Positions 1 through 64,000 of a DNA stretch of 64,000 nucleotides are shown one piece after another. A program made the translations under genes and the position numbers. Source of the DNA: a virus; the IMG/VR virus record IMGVR_UViG_3300021425_000008, positions 77,062-141,061 of that record; one strand, given 5' to 3'. A model generated the notes under the pieces. It did not search any database. It saw only the letters and a list, made by a program, of their open reading frames with translations, and was not told the origin of the DNA. Position 1 is the stretch's first letter. Each line of letters opens with the position of its first letter.

Positions 1-3000
1 CAACCAATATTCAGAGGTTCTATTCAAACCATCGATACGGTAAACGGTGGTGTTGGATACGGTGCATCAACAATTATTGACTTTAACAGACAACCAGAAG
101 TCACTTTCCAATCAGGCGAAGGAGCACTATTGACTCCTATCATCAACAACGGTCAGATATCAGAAGTTGTTGTTCTCTCTCCTGGTAATGGATATAATTC
201 TCCACCAGATTTAGTTGTCAGAAGTTTAGATGGTAAGGGTGATTTTGCAATTCTTGTTCCAGTAATCTCAAATGGCCAAATTGATAGTGTAATCGTTCAA
301 AAAGGTGGAGCTGGATATACAGCAGGTAAAACATCTGTTGATGTAATTGCAGCAGGTCAGGGTGCAAGAGTTCAAACCATGATCAGGGGTTGGAACATTA
401 ACCTGTTTGAGAAGAACTTTAACAATATCTTGGACGATGATTGTGTATTGACGGAGAATATCGCTAATACATCTTTACAATTTGCATCCTTCTTTGCCCA
501 GAGACCCCTTAGAGCAGCTTCTAATTCAATTAATGGATTTGAAGAGGATAATATCAAGTATGGTCTTTTTGATCTTCAATTGACCACAGGTGGTGAGGAA
601 ACATCCAGTGGATTCCACTCTCCTATTTTTGGATGGGCATATGATGGAAATCCAATTTATGGTCCATATGCATACGATAAGATTAATGGATCTGGTAGCA
701 TTCGTCGAATGCAGAGTGGATATAAGTTGAAGAATACACCAGTCAACAGACCATCATACACAGCATTCCGTAATGGATTCTTCGTTGATGACTACGAATT
801 TGTTGGAGATGGTGATCTTGATGAATACAACGGTAGATTCTGTGTCACACCTGATTATCCAAATGGTGTGTATGCTTACTTCTGTACTATCAGTAATGAT
901 ATTGAATCTTCTGGTCCTTTCAATAAATATAGACTTCCACAGTTCCCATATGTTATTGGTGACAAGTTCAAGTCTTTACCGAATGCATTCAACTTCAGAT
1001 CATCGTCCAATCAAACTGAATATGACATCACCAAAAATAACTGGTTGAGAAATACCAGATACTATTTTACTAATGGTGGAAATAATGGATACGATTATAT
1101 CTTTAATTCGGATCTGATAAGAAATTCATCTGTAGATATCACTGCAACCACTAGTGGTGGTATTGATATTGTTGATATCAAAGATCCAGGTGAAAATTAT
1201 AAAGTAAATGATAAAGTCATCTTTGATTCATCTCAAACTGATGGAAGAGGTGTAAATTGGAGAGTTGCTGAAATTAAGGGTAAAGATGTCACTCAGGTAA
1301 GTCTTGCAAAAACAGTATTTGAAGATTCTGAATTTGTAGGTGATGCATCTAGAAATGCTTTCACTGGAATCACTTCAGTACCTCATGATTTCTTGACGAA
1401 TGATATTGTCTTTGTTGATGGTCTGTCAGAATTCTATAGGGGATTTACTGGACCATTCAGAGCGGGTGTTTCAAGTGAAAGATGGTATACATCAGTTGGT
1501 ATTAAGACTGGAACAGTCACTGGTATCGTAACGTTTGTTTATCTCAGCGGTATTATTGATGAAGCTATTATTAGACCGAATGACATTCTAAGAATTGATC
1601 GTGAACAATTCAAAGTATTAAATCTTGATGTTGCATCAGGAAGAGTGAGAGTTGAGAGAGGTTATAACAGCTCACCACAAACTACTCACACAGCTGGTAC
1701 TCTTGTGAGAGATGATCCCAGAAAGATTAGATTTAGTGCTCCAGGTATCTCTACATTCAAACCTTTAAATTTAAACAAGACTCATTACTTCATGCCTAAT
1801 GAGTCTGTTGGTCTTGGAACTGCTACTGCAGGTACTGCAACGACAATTACATTCTCAAATCCTGGTGTTGGTATCACACAGTTGAGACTTCAACAACAAC
1901 AATTCTATTATCCAGATCACGGACTTGAATTAAATACTCCACTCAAATATTATAAGGGTGGTGGTACTTCCTTAGCAGTTTGGAGTGGTATTCAATCTTC
2001 CTCGATATTCAATCTTGATGAGACAAGAGATTTGTTTGCTGTACCTATTACTCAAGATATTATTGGTCTGGCATCGGATAGAGTTGCCTTGAGTACGGTA
2101 ACCAATCAATATGTTGGTGTCGATAGTACTAAAGGTGGATTATTATACTATACCAATTCTACCAATCTTGGACAGACACATAGTCTTGTTACTGTTCTTC
2201 CAACAGTTCTCACGGGTAGAATCTCTCAAAATGTAGTGACAGTTTCTACTGGTGAAACTCATGGTATGAAGAGGGGTGATAGGATTTTGGTTGATGTAAA
2301 TCCAACGACAACCACAACAGTTAAGGTTCTTTATGATGATTACAATAGAAGAATAGTATTTGATAGAGATACCATTGAACCATCTGGTATCAACACAAGT
2401 AATAATTCGTTTACTGTTCCAATTAACAAGTATAGAACTGGTGATAAAGTCATTTACACTTCTGGAGATCCATCAGAGGGTCTGAATGCAAATGAAATGT
2501 ATTATGTTTATGTCTACAAGGATGACGTAATCAAACTTACAGATGAAGTTTATCAATTGTTCTCAGAAAACCCAACTTTTGTCAATGTTGGTTCTGCAAC
2601 AACTGGAAGTATTGCAAGAATTAATCCAAGAATCGAAGTTCAGAAGAATCAGGATTTGAAGTTTGATTTATCCGATCCCTCATTGTCATTTGTTGATAAG
2701 ACAATCACATATTCTGCATTTGAGATGCATCTTTATAGTGACTCTCAGAAGATTAATGAATTCTTCACAACAAAAACAAATTCAAAATTTGAAGTTACAA
2801 CTTCAGGACAAATTGGTATCGATAGTACGGCAAACCTCACTTTAAGTATAAGTAACGAACTTCCTGAGAGTCTGTATTATGGTTTTGAACCAGATAACCT
2901 AGACATCATACCACCAGTCAAGTTGAGAATATTTGAAGATGACCAAGTATTCAAACATAACACTATTGGTGTCGTACCAAATAAGTTTGATGGTGTTTAT

Positions 3001-6000
3001 AGTGTTGTGGGGGTAACTTCAGATACCTTTGATTATAATATCCCTTATGATAGTGATACTGTTACTTCTTATGGTTCAACCAATTCAACGGTTAAGTATA
3101 ACACCACTTCACCAACTGCATTTGGACCTATTAATAGAGTAACTGCAGTCAATGAAGGAATTGGTTACAAAACTCTGCCTGGATTTACATCTGTAAGAAG
3201 TGCAAAAGGAACTGGTGCATTATTAGAGCCAAGAAGTACAACAATTGGTTCGGTTCTCAAACAGAAGATAAACTATATTGGATTTGGTTTCCCATCCGAC
3301 AATACTCTGAACATTGTTGCAAATCTTCCACAGGTTCTCAGAGTAGAACCACTTGGTAAATTCGAACAGATCGGTATTTCTTCGGGTGGTGTTAATTATA
3401 GTCAACCTCCACAATTGGTTGTTCTTGACGGTTTAACAGGATTACAAATTACTGACCTTGATCTGAGATTTGACTTTGATCAGACCTTTGTAGATATTGT
3501 TCAGAATACACAATCTCTGAATGATGTTATACCAGAGATTATTCCCGTTCAAAACACTAATGGTTTCAGTATTAGTTCAATCACTTACAACAATACCTCA
3601 AAAGTTGTACGTTTGACTTTCTCTCATCAATTCAGTGATCCTGAAGATTGGCCATTTAAGGTTGGTGAAGAATTCCTCGTAGAAAACGTTGCAATTGGTT
3701 TTGGAACTGTAGGTAAAGGTTACAACTCTGAAGATTATGGATATAAACTCTTCAAGGTGACTTCATTAGATAGTCAACTCGGAGGAAGTGGTGCATTTAT
3801 TGAATATAGTCTTTCAGACGTTCTTGGTACAGGCGAAGTTCCTGGAGCAGTTGTAAGTACTGTATCTGGTACTGTAACTCCTAGAGTATACTTCCCGATC
3901 TTTGATCCTGTCATTAAAACTTCACCTCTGTTGACTGGAGAAAGGGTCACAAATGAAGGAAGAACTGGTATTGTTGAAAGATTTGATGAGGTAAGTAGAT
4001 ATCTCTTCGTTTCTGCTGAAGATGACTTTGTGGTTGGAACAGATGTGGTCTCTGAAACATCTGGTGTAAGAGCAACAATTTTAGACACAACTGTGTTTGA
4101 TTCAACGATCAAACTTGGTGTTGGTGCAACATTTATTGATGGTTGGCAAACAAACTCTGGTTTCTTGAACGATAATCTTCAGGTGATTCCTAATAATGAA
4201 TATTATCAAAACTTCTCATACTCTCTTAAATCGAGAGTTGCTTTAGACACATGGGATGATGCTGTAAGTTCTCTGAACCACACTGCAGGTTTTGAAAAAT
4301 TTGCTGACTTGGTTATTGATAATAATGCACCTGGTATCGTAACAGCAGCAGACATTGAGATTTCAACTGTTGTCGATCTCATTGGTGAGGGAATGCTCAA
4401 CTGTTTCCCTGACTTTGATGGTGCAACTGAAAGAACTTTGGATATTTCGAATGGAAGAACTATCTCCAATGAGATTGTATTTGAAACAAAAGTTCTTGTT
4501 GACTACTTCGAGTCAAGAGGAAATAGAGTTCTTAAAATCGATGACTTTAGTGATGAGTTTGATAGTGATCCAAGAGATACACCTTTCTCAATCATCAGTT
4601 TCTTTGATAACAAGTATGCATGGAATAAGTTCTTTACTCTTATTCAAGATACTGAAATTAGAAATAGAAAACAGTTTGGTATTGTCACCCTCCTTCAAAA
4701 TGGTTCAGATGGTTTCTTGAATCAATACGGTACAGTTGATACAGGTAAAGCACTTGGTTCATTTGAACATATCAGTATTGGTACAAGTCAGTTTGGTCTC
4801 GCATGGTACCCAAATCTCTTCGAATACAACAACTATGAAGTATCTTACTTCAACTTTGCTGGTGTAGAAAGTCTGACAGGAATTGGATCAACTGCAATCG
4901 GTAGTATGGTTTCAATAGCTTCATCTTCTGTCGCTGTTGGTGTTGGTACTACAACCACATTATTAGAACTTCCAACTGCAACTAGATCTGCAAAAGTTCA
5001 CATTCAAATGGAAGATGGTAATGACAACTACTTCTATAATGAACTGAACGTCCTTCATGATGGTACAAATGTACAACTCCTTCAATATGGCGATATTGAT
5101 ACTACCACCGATCCATCTTCAGGGTTTGGAACTTACACTGCAAACATAAGTGGTAGTAATATCGAGATTGACATTCATCCTACCGTAGGAACTGCTGTAA
5201 CGGCAAACATCTTGTCAGTCGAGGTACATGGTACAAACACTGGTGTTGACACCACTGGAATGATCGTGACTAACCTTTCATCATACCATACAAGTATCTC
5301 TTCATCTGGTACACCTACTGCCAATGAGATTGCATCTTTCAATAATCCATTTGCTGCAGAGTACTTCATGGTAACTGTCCATGATACTACGAATGATGAG
5401 TATGAAATGTTTGAGTGTCATGTCTTGGACTCCACTAGTAATCAAAATATTACTAAGTACGGTAGAATTGACACTATCTCTGGTGTAGGACTTGGTACCG
5501 TTGGTATGACCAAGACTGGAAGTTCGATTAGTTTGAACTTCACTCCAAATGCAAACATCGCTGTTGATGTGAAGACATTTGGTATTGGTCTAAAGAACTA
5601 TAACAATATTACGGGTATCACTTCAATCAGTGACCTTCAAAATAATATTCTCTTCTCTAACCATGGTACTTACACAGGTACCCAGTTCGATACAAGAAGA
5701 GCATTTAACCTGAAGCACAATGATCTTCCAATCTTCCAGAGAGCATTCCTTGGAAATAATTCAAGTATTGTAGATCTTACAAATAATTTGATCACCGTTC
5801 CTGATCACTTCTTTGTCACTGGCGAAAAACTCATTTACAGCTATGAGAATTCATTATATGAGTCCACTAATGCAATAGGAATTGTCACACAATCAATCGC
5901 AGGTGTTTCCACTGACAAACTTCCAACAGAAGTCTATGCAGTTAAAGTAAGTGAAACTCAGGTCGGTCTTGCTACTAATGCAGCTGCAGCACTTAAAGGC

Positions 6001-59247: not shown

Positions 59248-59474
59248 TTAAACTAGAATTAGATGTAAGACAAGCAGCATCCATTCGTCAGGTGCTATAT
59301 AAAGAACAGAGTATTTACACATACGATCCTAAATGTGTTCCTCCACGTATCGTTGACATTCGTGAAGTCATCGGTTCATTGGATACTCAGATCGAGGCTG
59401 AACTCGAAGAAGCTGCAAAAAAAATTCAAAAGCTTGAGGAGGAAGCAGCACCAGACTACGGAGTTGGGAAGTGA
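59244..59474 (+). CDS. Hypothetical protein
   Basis: GTGA overlaps at both ends; AGGAGG SD. Confidence 0.7.
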   Translation: MIKLELDVRQAASIRQVLYKEQSIYTYDPKCVPPRIVDIREVIGSLDTQIEAELEEAAKKIQKLEEEAAPDYGVGK

Positions 59475-59911
59475 AACAGGTACACATCTGTCAATTATTT
59501 GATGATGGTATCTGGGAGGATAGAGCTGAAGACTGGCGTATAAAACCAGATTGTGATTCTGTTCTTTTTCTTAAGTACATTGAGGAATATCTAGTTCCCG
59601 AAATATTACAAACTATTTGTTTTGACAAAGTAATTCATACGTCTGAAATTTTGTATCCTGATTTGTCATTGGATAACTGTATTTGTTGTAATGGAGTTAA
59701 ACATAAGTTGTGTAACATCAATAAACCAGTCATTGTTGTTCACAACATGCCTAACCCATACAACAAAGAATACAAACTTATTGACGGAAAACACAGATTC
59801 AATAAAATGCGTAGTATGGGGATGACAGAATCCAAGATGTACGTCCTTGAGTTTGAAGAGATTAAACATCTATTCAAAGACATTAATCACAATAAGTATA
59901 TTAAAAAATGA
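59471..59911 (+). CDS. ParB/sulfiredoxin-like domain protein
   Basis: PVIVV...YKLIDGKHR signature. Confidence 0.7.
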   Translation: MKQVHICQLFDDGIWEDRAEDWRIKPDCDSVLFLKYIEEYLVPEILQTICFDKVIHTSEILYPDLSLDNCICCNGVKHKLCNINKPVIVVHNMPNPYNKEYKLIDGKHRFNKMRSMGMTESKMYVLEFEEIKHLFKDINHNKYIKK

Positions 59912-60603
59912 CATACGACTTTTCTTTCGCACATTCACCAGAAGGATTCGATAATCACATCGACAAATCTATTCGGGGGTACTCAAACCTTCTCGATGAC
60001 ACTGTATCGTTCTCTCGATACTTCGTAGAAGATCATACCAAAGTCGTTGATGTGGGTTGTTCTACTGGTAAACTGACCAAGATGATCCTTGCCAATAATC
60101 AGTCTCGTAAACAAACTCAATATGTAGGTGTTGAACTTGCTGGTGGGTTCTATGATGACTTGGATGAGAGATACAAAGAGATCCGTAAAGACTACCCTTG
60201 GGCGATTCTGGATTTTGTTCGTGGTAATGTCACCAACTATGAGTTCAAAAACTGTTCTCTGGTGACATCATTGTTCACTCTTCAGTTCATGCCAAAGACT
60301 ACTCGTCAAGATACAATCAATAAAATTTATGAGGGTCTGAATGAAGGTGGGGCATTCATCTTTGCAGAGAAGTTGATGTGTGAGAATGCGTTCTTTCAAG
60401 AACTACTGACATTCAACCACTATGACTATAAAAGAAAATCATTCACTGCAGATGAGATCATGGACAAGGAGAAAGAACTACGTGATATGTTGAAACCAAA
60501 TACTTGGGAAGAACTCAAGTCTATGATATGGTGTGCTGGGTTCAGAGACTGTCAGATCTTCTGGAGAAACCATCAGTTCGTTGGAGTTATTGCTATCAAA
60601 TAA
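59908..60603 (+). CDS. cmoA: CmoA-like carboxy-S-adenosylmethionine synthase
   Basis: GYSN, DVGCSTG, FTLQF, KIYEGLNEGGAFIFAEK and HYDYKR match CmoA family motifs in order along the whole length. Confidence 0.85.
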   Translation: MTYDFSFAHSPEGFDNHIDKSIRGYSNLLDDTVSFSRYFVEDHTKVVDVGCSTGKLTKMILANNQSRKQTQYVGVELAGGFYDDLDERYKEIRKDYPWAILDFVRGNVTNYEFKNCSLVTSLFTLQFMPKTTRQDTINKIYEGLNEGGAFIFAEKLMCENAFFQELLTFNHYDYKRKSFTADEIMDKEKELRDMLKPNTWEELKSMIWCAGFRDCQIFWRNHQFVGVIAIK

Positions 60604-60648
60604 ACTGGCACAAGGGACCTAGACAGGTCCCTTTTTTTATTGTATACT
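60603..60648 (+). promoter_or_regulatory. Combined terminator and early-type promoter (copy 3 of the element)
   Basis: AACTGGCAC; AAGGGACCT/AGGTCCCTT hairpin plus T tract; TAGACA-N17-TATACT. Confidence 0.75.
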
Positions 60649-60707
60649 TTGATTGGACGAGAGCAATGGTGCCAGTGTCCATTAAAAGGTCATAGGAGGC
60701 CAAATAA

Positions 60708-62054
60708 ATGTTATACACTAAACAAACCCCAACCATTCGTGAATTTCGTGACACGATGTATCACAAAACAGAATGTCAACCAGTAGGACAACGACTTCCT
60801 GTTTATTCAAAAGACAATGCAAAAAGCATTGGAATTATTACAACCCTCTTAGATGGATATGATATCGGAACGATTACAGTAATGAAACTGAATCGTCAAC
60901 AAAAACGTGCTGCTGCAAAAGTAAAGTTTGAATTTGAAAGTATTGATGGTGGTCACCGTAAGCGCTCTTTGTATTCATATCTACAAGACGATTTCATGGT
61001 TCGTGGGAAATATTTCTCACAACTTTCAGAAAAAGAACAAGATGCATTTCTAGACACTGAACTTTCATTCACTGTTTACAACGCACTTGATTCTGCAACA
61101 AAAGGACACATCTTTCGCACACTGAATAAAACAACAGATGTGAATTTCATTGAGATGCTTAACTCATATGGAGACATTTCAGTTGCAAACTTTATTCGTG
61201 AAACAGTTCGTACTGTCAAACAGATTGACAATGAATGCAATACTCTTTTTGAATTCACCTTGAATGCAAAAAGTGAGCCAAACTACACATACCTTTCCTT
61301 TGACAACGACCGTCTGAAACAAGACCATGCGTTTGCTCGTATTGCACATCGTTATATTCAACATCCAAAACAGTTGCTTGGTGGTTCGTCTGATACTGAA
61401 CTTGAAGCAATGTATGAAGATTCAGAATTGACAATGAAAGATATTCCAGTTGCGAAAATCAAAGCACACCTAGATTTCTTACGCAAAGTTGCAATGTATC
61501 GAAAGCAACAGTTCAAAACTGGACTTACACAGCATGACTTCAAAGCACTTTCATACCTTTACTTCTATCTTTCAGATACCTATGGTACATTTACCATTCC
61601 TGATGCAGAAGAATTTTTCAAGGCATATGCTCGTGCAAACTCATCACTAATGAATAAGGATGGAGACTATGCCGAGGTTATTCACGAACCTTCTGGTTAT
61701 AGTGTACAGGTGATGTACAAGAAGTATATTGCTGCTCCTTGGGATGGTAAAAAGATTTCTACTGCAATATCTTATCTTGTTGGAGAAATGGGTGATATTG
61801 AAGATATCATTGAAACACGAGACAACAACCGTTCTTTCACTGTAAACGAGAAGGAGGCAAAACTTGCCGAACAGAATTTTGTTTGTGCAGTCGATGGAAA
61901 AAAACTTGAGTGGGATGATGCACATGCTGCTCACATCACTGCACACGCAAATGGTGGACGTACTAAGTATAGTAACCTTGCAATGGTTCGTGCCTGTTAT
62001 AATAAAGAAATGGGTACAATAGACTTGAACGAATACAAAAAATTGTGTGTATGA
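60708..62054 (+). CDS. DUF262 plus C-terminal HNH protein (GmrSD/SspE-like nuclease)
   Basis: DUF262 motifs QR, IDGGHR and FRTLN; C-terminal HITAHANGGRT..SNL.....YN HNH-like segment; AGGAGG SD. Confidence 0.75.
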   Translation: MLYTKQTPTIREFRDTMYHKTECQPVGQRLPVYSKDNAKSIGIITTLLDGYDIGTITVMKLNRQQKRAAAKVKFEFESIDGGHRKRSLYSYLQDDFMVRGKYFSQLSEKEQDAFLDTELSFTVYNALDSATKGHIFRTLNKTTDVNFIEMLNSYGDISVANFIRETVRTVKQIDNECNTLFEFTLNAKSEPNYTYLSFDNDRLKQDHAFARIAHRYIQHPKQLLGGSSDTELEAMYEDSELTMKDIPVAKIKAHLDFLRKVAMYRKQQFKTGLTQHDFKALSYLYFYLSDTYGTFTIPDAEEFFKAYARANSSLMNKDGDYAEVIHEPSGYSVQVMYKKYIAAPWDGKKISTAISYLVGEMGDIEDIIETRDNNRSFTVNEKEAKLAEQNFVCAVDGKKLEWDDAHAAHITAHANGGRTKYSNLAMVRACYNKEMGTIDLNEYKKLCV

Positions 62055-62866
62055 TTGACATTATCCTCAGTGATATCATCTCTCAAGAAGTCCCTACAGA
62101 TGATGTGGGGATTTTGTTGTCTGGTGGTGTAGATAGTTTAAGTCTAGGGTTTGCAGCAGACCGTGCAGGTAAAAGAGTTGATGCATATACTTTTCATCTT
62201 GAAGGTGATAAGTCATATGATGCTTTGAAAGCAGAAGAAGTATCCTCTAAGTTTGGGTGGAACTGTAAGACCATTGTTGTCCCTAAAGATAATCTTGCTC
62301 AAGACTTTCTCCGTCTTGTGAAAGACTACGATTGTAGAAAGAAGACACACTTTGAGTGTACGTTTCCTTTCCTCTATGTCTTCCCTGAAATCACAAACAA
62401 GTACTTACTGAGTGGGATTGGTGCAGACGGATATTATGGTGTAAGTAAGAAAGCAATCCTTCACTTCAAAACACCAAAAGAAAAGTTCGATCAATTTAGA
62501 CGTAACTACTTCATGCCACATAATGTGACAGGATTTCGACAGATTGAACAACTGTGTAATGAAAGGGATATCAAACTCATCCACCCATATATCTACCATG
62601 ACGATGTAAAAAGTTTCTTCTTTCAATATGATTGGTTCGAACTAAACAAGCCAAAACAAAAACAGATTGTAAGAGATGCATTTGCTGATGAGTTTGGTCG
62701 TATCAAAGCGGTAAAGGATCATATCAATCTGCAACTTGGTTCAAATATTGATCACTTGTTTGAAACACTCTTAGATGATAAGATGCTAAATAATCGTGGT
62801 AGGAAGAGGGTCATGGATCTCGCCTCTGACTACGCATCATCTGGACAAGGAACACTTCCATTATGA
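62051..62866 (+). CDS. Asparagine-synthetase-like ATP-dependent amide ligase (synthetase domain only)
   Basis: LLSGGVDS PP-loop, LSGIGADGYYG, PY and KQIVRDAF; no N-terminal Cys/Ntn glutaminase domain. Confidence 0.8.
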   Translation: MIDIILSDIISQEVPTDDVGILLSGGVDSLSLGFAADRAGKRVDAYTFHLEGDKSYDALKAEEVSSKFGWNCKTIVVPKDNLAQDFLRLVKDYDCRKKTHFECTFPFLYVFPEITNKYLLSGIGADGYYGVSKKAILHFKTPKEKFDQFRRNYFMPHNVTGFRQIEQLCNERDIKLIHPYIYHDDVKSFFFQYDWFELNKPKQKQIVRDAFADEFGRIKAVKDHINLQLGSNIDHLFETLLDDKMLNNRGRKRVMDLASDYASSGQGTLPL

Positions 62867-63981
62867 AACTGCCATATAAATTACAAGACGTTTATGACGG
62901 TGAGGCTCAATCAAAGTTCACCGTGATCTCTACCTTTGCTGGTGGTGGAGGATCCTCTACAGGATATCGACTCGCAGGTGCGAAGATTTTGTGTATCAAT
63001 GAGTTCGTGGAAGAAGCTAGAAAGACATATGCTGCAAACTATCCATCAACACCGATTGTCCCTGATGACATCAAACAACTAACGGGTGGTGACTTTCTTA
63101 AGATCACAGGATTGAAACCAGGAGAACTTGATATTCTTGATGGATCACCACCATGTTCTGCATTCTCTGTTGCAGGATCTATGTGTCGTGGTGAGGGATC
63201 TAAACACTCTGATGGATGGGGTAAGACAAAGAACTATTCTGATGGTAAGAAAGTAGAAAACATCGAAGATTTGTTCTTTGAATTTATTCGTGTTGCCGAA
63301 GGTATTCAACCAAAAGTTATTGTTGCTGAGAACGTCAAAGGATTGACAATTGGTGAGGCAAAGACTTATTATGCAAAGATTACCAATGCCTTTGAGGATC
63401 TTGGTTATCTCGTCACATCAAAAGTGATGAAGTCATCTCACTACGGTGTAGGTCAGGCAAGAGAACGACTCATCTTTATCGCGGTTCGTCAAGACATCGC
63501 AGATAAGATTGGTTTGAATGTACTTACAGTATCTTCACTCTTCCCTCCCACGTCATCTAAAGATACAACCATCGGTGATATTATTGATGGAGTTGAACAA
63601 GATCCTGAGTACATTCAGGGTCTTGTCGATCATATGACAAAGAGTGGTATCTACAAAAAAGTTGTGAGTAAGATGCCAAAGGATCCTAAAAAGATTCTAT
63701 CTGGCATGGACTACCACGAGAAAGGTCATTGTTTCAATACGAAGAGGGCATCATTCTATAAACCCTCTCCGACCTTGACAGCAAGTGGTGGTCTGATACA
63801 CTGGAAGGAAGACAGAGTTCTTTCTGTTCCAGAACTTAAGCGCATTCAATCTCTCCCTGACGACTTCATTCTTACTGGCTCTCACTCACAACAAACTGAA
63901 AGAGTTGGTAGAATGGTACCTCCCCTCATGATGAAGGCAATCGCCGAAAACATTTACAAAGAAGTTCTATCTAAATTATGA
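62863..63981 (+). CDS. C5-cytosine DNA methyltransferase-fold enzyme, predicted carboxymethyltransferase
   Basis: Motif I FAGGGG, motif IV GSPPC (C98), motif VI ENV, motif VIII QARER, motif IX RIQSLPD, and motif X variant VGRMVPP. Confidence 0.9.
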   Translation: MKLPYKLQDVYDGEAQSKFTVISTFAGGGGSSTGYRLAGAKILCINEFVEEARKTYAANYPSTPIVPDDIKQLTGGDFLKITGLKPGELDILDGSPPCSAFSVAGSMCRGEGSKHSDGWGKTKNYSDGKKVENIEDLFFEFIRVAEGIQPKVIVAENVKGLTIGEAKTYYAKITNAFEDLGYLVTSKVMKSSHYGVGQARERLIFIAVRQDIADKIGLNVLTVSSLFPPTSSKDTTIGDIIDGVEQDPEYIQGLVDHMTKSGIYKKVVSKMPKDPKKILSGMDYHEKGHCFNTKRASFYKPSPTLTASGGLIHWKEDRVLSVPELKRIQSLPDDFILTGSHSQQTERVGRMVPPLMMKAIAENIYKEVLSKL

Positions 63982-64000
63982 AACTACTTACTCTCGAAGA
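63978..64000 (+). CDS. Start of the next coupled ORF (MKLLTLE...), truncated by the window end
   Basis: ATGA overlap with the methyltransferase stop codon. Confidence 0.5.

Follow-up and report, generated by a model that had tools for sequence, protein, structure and literature searches.

The closest described system is that of the cyanophage S-B43, in which three enzymes, CmoA, CmoX and CmoY, form a DNA hypermodification pathway; all three activities were shown by experiment (Yang et al., Nat Commun 2025, PMC12783734). SpCmoA forms carboxy-SAM from SAM and prephenate, and with this donor SpCmoX carboxymethylates cytosine at C5 in the GC motifs of dsDNA, giving 5-carboxymethylcytosine (5cxmC). 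When SpCmoX and SpCmoY were co-expressed in E. coli, 5cxmdC (m/z 286.1) was converted to 5gcxmdC (m/z 343.1). In vitro, the reaction of purified SpCmoY on 5cxmC-DNA required ATP, glycine and the enzyme, each of them, and both purified 5cxmC-modified genomic DNA and a 110-bp dsDNA served as substrates. In native S-B43 DNA, 5gcxmdC is present and 5cxmdC is absent. The adenylate intermediate of SpCmoY is the authors' proposal, by analogy with related ligases. ParB-domain genes were noted as neighbours of such clusters, and their function was left unexplained (Yang et al., PMC12783734). The ligase and its pathway are already known, since they were published in December 2025.

In this study we analysed a stretch of 64,000 nucleotides of viral DNA (positions 77,062 to 141,061 of the IMG/VR record IMGVR_UViG_3300021425_000008), the whole of which is referred to as the window. 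The IMG/VR contig represents an uncultured phage, and its completeness is estimated at 68%. The gene at 62051-62866 is very probably the orthologue of cmoY, whose product carries out the third step of the published CmoA-CmoX-CmoY pathway of phages.

A stand-alone synthetase domain encoded next to a predicted DNA carboxymethyltransferase

The cmoY ORF was translated over 271 codons without internal stops. Asn_synthase was the sole significant Pfam match of the protein (E 2.4e-13, 50.9 bits against a cut-off of 21 bits), and it aligned residues 18-179 with profile positions 19-186 of 354. The SGGVDS and SGxGAD motifs reported in the original prediction for a 271-aa protein are present at the positions listed in Table 1. 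The same prediction held that the protein lacks a glutaminase domain, and this was confirmed: no glutaminase family was matched in Pfam by the 271-aa protein, and GATase_7 (PF13537) had no match across the whole 141-kb contig. Moreover, the frame is open for only 15 codons 5' of the ATG, leaving no room for a missed N-terminal domain. The overlap of the cmoY stop with the methyltransferase start was also found as described, the TGA (62864-62866) and the ATG of cmoX (62863-62865) forming ATGA. The cmoY start likewise lies in an ATGA overlap, with the stop (62052-62054) of an upstream ORF of 448 aa.

The AlphaFold2 model of the protein (mean pLDDT 92.4) was superposed by Foldseek on the synthetase domains of beta-lactam synthetase, carbapenam synthetase and the human and E. 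coli asparagine synthetases (E down to 9.8e-12, TMq 0.72-0.75). Against the PDB sequences, the single-sequence search gave only a weak match to CarA (E 0.63), and the CmoY family profile had its best matches in the beta-lactam synthetase/CarA group (E 3.8e-4).

The predicted substrate-forming genes flank cmoY, cmoX immediately on its 3' side and cmoA 1.4 kb on its 5' side. The window CmoX matched SpCmoX of S-B43 (PDB 8YF3) over residues 1-372 (phmmer E 1.1e-245, approximately 96% identical, scattered substitutions only), and it keeps SPPC (95-98) with the nucleophile C98, the carboxy-SAM-binding R350, E47 and D69. The window CmoA matched the NCBIfam model TIGR00740 (CmoA) at 8.5e-34, which is below the equivalog cut-off.

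Table 1. Coordinates of the features considered in this work. Positions refer to the window unless a locus is named; functions are predicted.
Feature	Position	Strand	Description and basis
cmoA orthologue	59908..60603	+	Carboxy-SAM synthase, would supply the carboxymethyl donor; 94% identity (217/231) to S-B43 QDH50618.1 (SpCmoA)
cmoY orthologue	62051..62866	+	271-aa stand-alone AsnB-type synthetase (PP-loop) domain; predicted ATP-dependent 5cxmC-glycine amide ligase
PP-loop SGGVDS	aa 24-29, 62120..62137	+	ATP pyrophosphate-binding motif; S24, G25, G26, D28 and S29 invariant among 43 family members
SGIGADG	aa 121-127, 62411..62431	+	Second conserved motif of AsnB-type synthetase domains; G122, A125 and D126 invariant, G127 nearly so
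cmoX orthologue	62863..63981	+	DNA cytosine C5-carboxymethyltransferase (372 aa), would make the 5cxmC substrate of CmoY; phmmer to PDB 8YF3, Pfam DNA_methylase 1.3e-52
448-aa DUF262/ParB-like + HNH (GmrSD-like) gene	60708..62054	+	Between cmoA and cmoY, coupled to cmoY; absent from S-B43
146-aa ORF	59471..59911	+	GTG start, IDGKHR motif (ParB-like by motif only); between a 76-aa gene and cmoA; no S-B43 counterpart
314-315-aa VDGTHR gene	L018:1162-2106, L026:1004-1948, L027:1813-2760, L035:3057-4004		

Similarity to SpCmoY and expected activity

The window protein and SpCmoY (QDH50619.1) are identical at 254 of 271 positions (94%), over the full length and without gaps. In S-B43, cmoY occupies 147774-148589, according to the source data of PMC12783734, and the gene order is cmoA, cmoY, cmoX. 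At the DNA level, megablast with positions 60000-64000 of the window returned S-B43 and three sister phages, at approximately 89% identity.

The substrate proposed in the original prediction, the carboxyl of carboxymethylcytosine in DNA joined to a free amine, is supported by the published activity of SpCmoY (PMC12783734). The amine had been left there as an amino acid, ammonia or polyamine; that of SpCmoY is glycine, an amino acid. In the window phage, CmoA would produce carboxy-SAM from SAM and prephenate, and CmoX, which is homologous to C5-methyltransferases and has Arg where their motif X has Asn, would carboxymethylate cytosine C5 at GC sites in dsDNA to give 5cxmC. CmoY would then adenylate the 5cxmC carboxylate with ATP, and attack of free glycine on the acyl-adenylate would yield 5-glycylcarboxymethylcytosine (5gcxmC), AMP and PPi. 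The modification would be made on DNA, post-replication, and would protect it against restriction enzymes.

An enzyme of the same kind, a 5cxmC-DNA amide ligase, might use ammonia, another amino acid or a polyamine in place of glycine. Other CmoY-like clusters do have different pocket residues and presumably use other amines (PMC12783734), and the window protein differs from SpCmoY by 17 substitutions. However, the identity of 94% places it inside the SpCmoY cluster, and in an alignment of 43 homologues all 17 substitutions fall in family-variable columns, several of them being conservative (I/V, K/R, F/Y, S/T). None of the 79 columns conserved at 90% or more differs between the two proteins. 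As no family-conserved position is substituted, glycine is the expected amine for the window protein too, and a different amine is improbable. From the sequence identity, together with the conserved gene context, we infer with good support that the window protein has the activity of SpCmoY, with glycine as the amine.

It is less probable still, and indeed very unlikely, that the protein adenylates a carboxylate other than that of DNA 5cxmC, for instance on a free nucleotide or on an RNA base that bears a carboxymethyl group. The weak matches of the protein to QueC and to tRNA-modifying PP-loop enzymes, and the origin of CmoA in a tRNA modification pathway, are consistent with such a substrate, but SpCmoY was active in vitro on genomic DNA and on dsDNA, as described above, and no CmoB homologue was reported in the S-B43 system (PMC12783734).

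The Asn_synthase match and the database labels of asparagine synthase would also suit an auxiliary metabolic gene, the product of which makes Asn from Asp with ammonia. Such a metabolic asparagine synthetase is excluded for practical purposes. The protein scores 43.2 bits against the equivalog model TIGR01536 (cut-off 267.1) and matches it in the PP-loop region only (aa 16-130 against model positions 252-369 of 517); it spans roughly half of the Pfam synthetase profile and lacks a glutaminase domain. Its near-identical orthologue SpCmoY works on 5cxmC in DNA (PMC12783734), and cmoY is translationally coupled to cmoX. The labels themselves are those that the original prediction had anticipated as a mis-annotation: the S-B43 orthologue is a 'putative asparagine synthase' in GenBank, and several metagenomic homologues are labelled 'asparagine synthetase B (glutamine-hydrolysing)' by JGI.

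Distribution of CmoY relatives

The CmoY family comprised 464 metagenomic cluster representatives at E <= 0.001, and relatives were encoded in 502 IMG/VR stretches. All 30 of the closest IMG/VR loci, with identities of 76% or more, have the cmoA/cmoY/cmoX neighbourhood, as far as the contigs reach.

Further out, approximately 26 of 50 CmoY-like IMG/VR loci at 49-56% identity had no CmoX or CmoA within 4 kb (including L052, L053, L054, L056, L067, L072 and L075). These genes lie beside RNase H, DNA polymerase B or UvsX/helicase genes. A search for C5-methyltransferases (PF00145) in five contigs with a CmoY-like gene and no adjacent CmoX found none, the contigs being only 9-21% complete. Either the partner genes of these lone loci are elsewhere, or the loci encode ligases with another substrate. 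CmoY-like proteins at 32-34% identity were also present in GenBank, in 48 Erwinia amylovora jumbo phage records and in Dickeya phage AD1, as well as in Pseudomonas, Yersinia and Staphylococcus/Mammaliicoccus phage records; most are labelled hypothetical.

Two further variants of the cluster were observed among near relatives. The cultured sister phage RN05-S of Synechococcus (L003, PV261924.1) has cmoA followed directly by cmoX at 2908-4747, with no cmoY. Modification of its DNA would be expected to end at 5-carboxymethylcytosine, which makes RN05-S a natural control for the role of the ligase. In the IMG/VR loci L014 and L015, CmoY is 99-100% and CmoX 99% identical to those of the window, CmoA is just 88% identical, and the DUF262-HNH insert is missing; this pattern indicates recombination or mosaicism inside the cluster.

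Extra genes around cmoA and cmoY

Two clean insertions, each adding one gene, set the window apart from S-B43. The first, of approximately 1.45 kb (60604-62054), extends from the cmoA stop to the cmoY start and contains the 448-aa gene. A terminator-like hairpin (60612-60633) and a promoter-like site (60620-60648) in this insertion are only suggestive, as the counts of such sites did not exceed those in shuffled sequence. The second, of approximately 437 bp in the alignment with S-B43, lies upstream of cmoA and encodes the 146-aa ORF. This ORF had no Pfam match, and a copy of it, 96% identical, is present 5' of cmoA in L014 and L015.

The 448-aa ORF had no significant match in Pfam, PHROGs or NCBIfam, only weak matches to REase_II and PtuB in PADLOC, and no tblastn match among 50,697 GenBank phage records. 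It had 293 metagenomic homologues, and the invariant motifs of this family are QR, DGGHR and a C-terminal H...N...N (HNH). The family profile gave only a marginal match to the HNH of Cas9 among the PDB sequences (E 0.68), and Foldseek returned no match to the model at E <= 0.001. In structural comparison, the C-terminus of the model aligned with Cas9 HNH domains (Z 8.1-8.6, rmsd approximately 2 A over some 70 residues) and its N-terminus with SspE (Z 7.1), while residues 3-363 aligned with BrxU, of the GmrSD family, as a loose global fit (Z 7.5, rmsd 12.8 A over 289 residues).

In each of the four contexts examined, homologues of the 448-aa protein (82%, 75%, 60% and 49% identity) were encoded directly 5' of Asn_synthase (CmoY) and DNA_methylase genes; in these diverged marine phages, cmoA was upstream in some cases and downstream in others. 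A randomly inserted, free-standing homing endonuclease was considered for the 448-aa ORF and dropped as the sole reading, because the homologues keep their position 5' of CmoY in diverged phages despite the different placement of cmoA. The near-identical CmoY loci without the gene (L014 and L015) leave room for mobility.

The interval between cmoA and cmoY is occupied by another gene in four close IMG/VR relatives (Table 1), the product of which (314-315 aa, VDGTHR motif) has no detectable similarity to the 448-aa protein. Taken together, the 448-aa gene, its absence in L014 and L015 and the VDGTHR gene in the four loci indicate that the junction between cmoA and cmoY varies in content and harbours ParB-like (DGxHR) genes time and again, which makes it a hot spot for accessory genes of this kind.

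The two extra genes absent from S-B43 (448 aa and 146 aa) might alter the pathway. It is possible, if rather doubtful, that the ligase works in a four-gene module with the 448-aa protein as a functional partner, here and in many uncultured marine relatives. One possibility is that the 448-aa protein is a nuclease that spares 5gcxmC DNA and cuts unmodified or half-finished (5cxmC) DNA of the host or of competitors. Another possibility is that it is an NTPase that would load the modifying enzymes on DNA, by analogy with DpdB and DndB-like proteins of other systems that modify DNA.

Discussion

The gene product should be annotated as CmoY, a predicted ligase of glycine to 5-carboxymethylcytosine in DNA, instead of asparagine synthase. 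In the DNA of the window phage, 5-glycylcarboxymethylcytosine is then expected at GC sites, with consequences for restriction sensitivity and for the behaviour of this DNA in sequencing. A recently discovered DNA hypermodification chemistry could be inferred from raw sequence alone, as the original prediction did. Close relatives vary in the accessory genes of the locus, namely the DUF262-HNH gene and the genes with ParB-like motifs, and in the loss of cmoY in RN05-S.

The system most similar to the window is that of S-B43. SpCmoY (UniProt A0A514ABJ0, GenBank QDH50619.1) and the window protein are both of 271 aa and have the PP-loop and SGxGAD motifs in common, and in both phages the gene is ATGA-coupled and directly 5' of cmoX. 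Both phages have a T4-like cyanophage background (Kyanoviridae), with the cluster located in the replication-gene region, after DNA polymerase, UvsX, helicase and MazG. They differ in the upstream partner of cmoY, which is coupled to cmoA in S-B43 and to the inserted 448-aa DUF262-HNH gene in the window.

A second CmoY-like cluster (A0A7T0Q3R0, PMC12783734) also encodes an AMP-forming ligase associated with phage CmoA and CmoX. That ligase has a domain for glutamine hydrolysis, which the window protein lacks, and ammonia is the amine that it is predicted to join to 5cxmC; no soluble protein was obtained for this cluster (PMC12783734).

Asparagine synthetase B (E. coli AsnB, PDB 1CT9; human ASNS, PDB 6GQ3 and 8SUE) resembles CmoY in its PP-loop ATP pyrophosphatase fold (TMq 0.72-0.75) and in its two-step chemistry, in which a carboxylate is first adenylated and an amine then attacks it. 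Sequence identity between them is only about 15-17%, and CmoY does not have the N-terminal Ntn glutaminase domain. The substrates differ as well: the acyl substrate is aspartate in AsnB and would be a modified base in duplex DNA in CmoY, while the amine is glutamine-derived ammonia in AsnB and free glycine in CmoY.

Beta-lactam synthetase (PDB 1JGT, 1MC1) and CarA (PDB 1Q15, 1Q19) are the best structural and profile matches of CmoY. Like CmoY, they are AsnB-derived enzymes in which the glutaminase function was lost and a carboxylate other than that of aspartate is adenylated. By contrast, they keep a vestigial N-terminal domain, of which CmoY has none, and their product is a small molecule closed by an intramolecular amide (a lactam), whereas the amide formed by CmoY is intermolecular and made on DNA.
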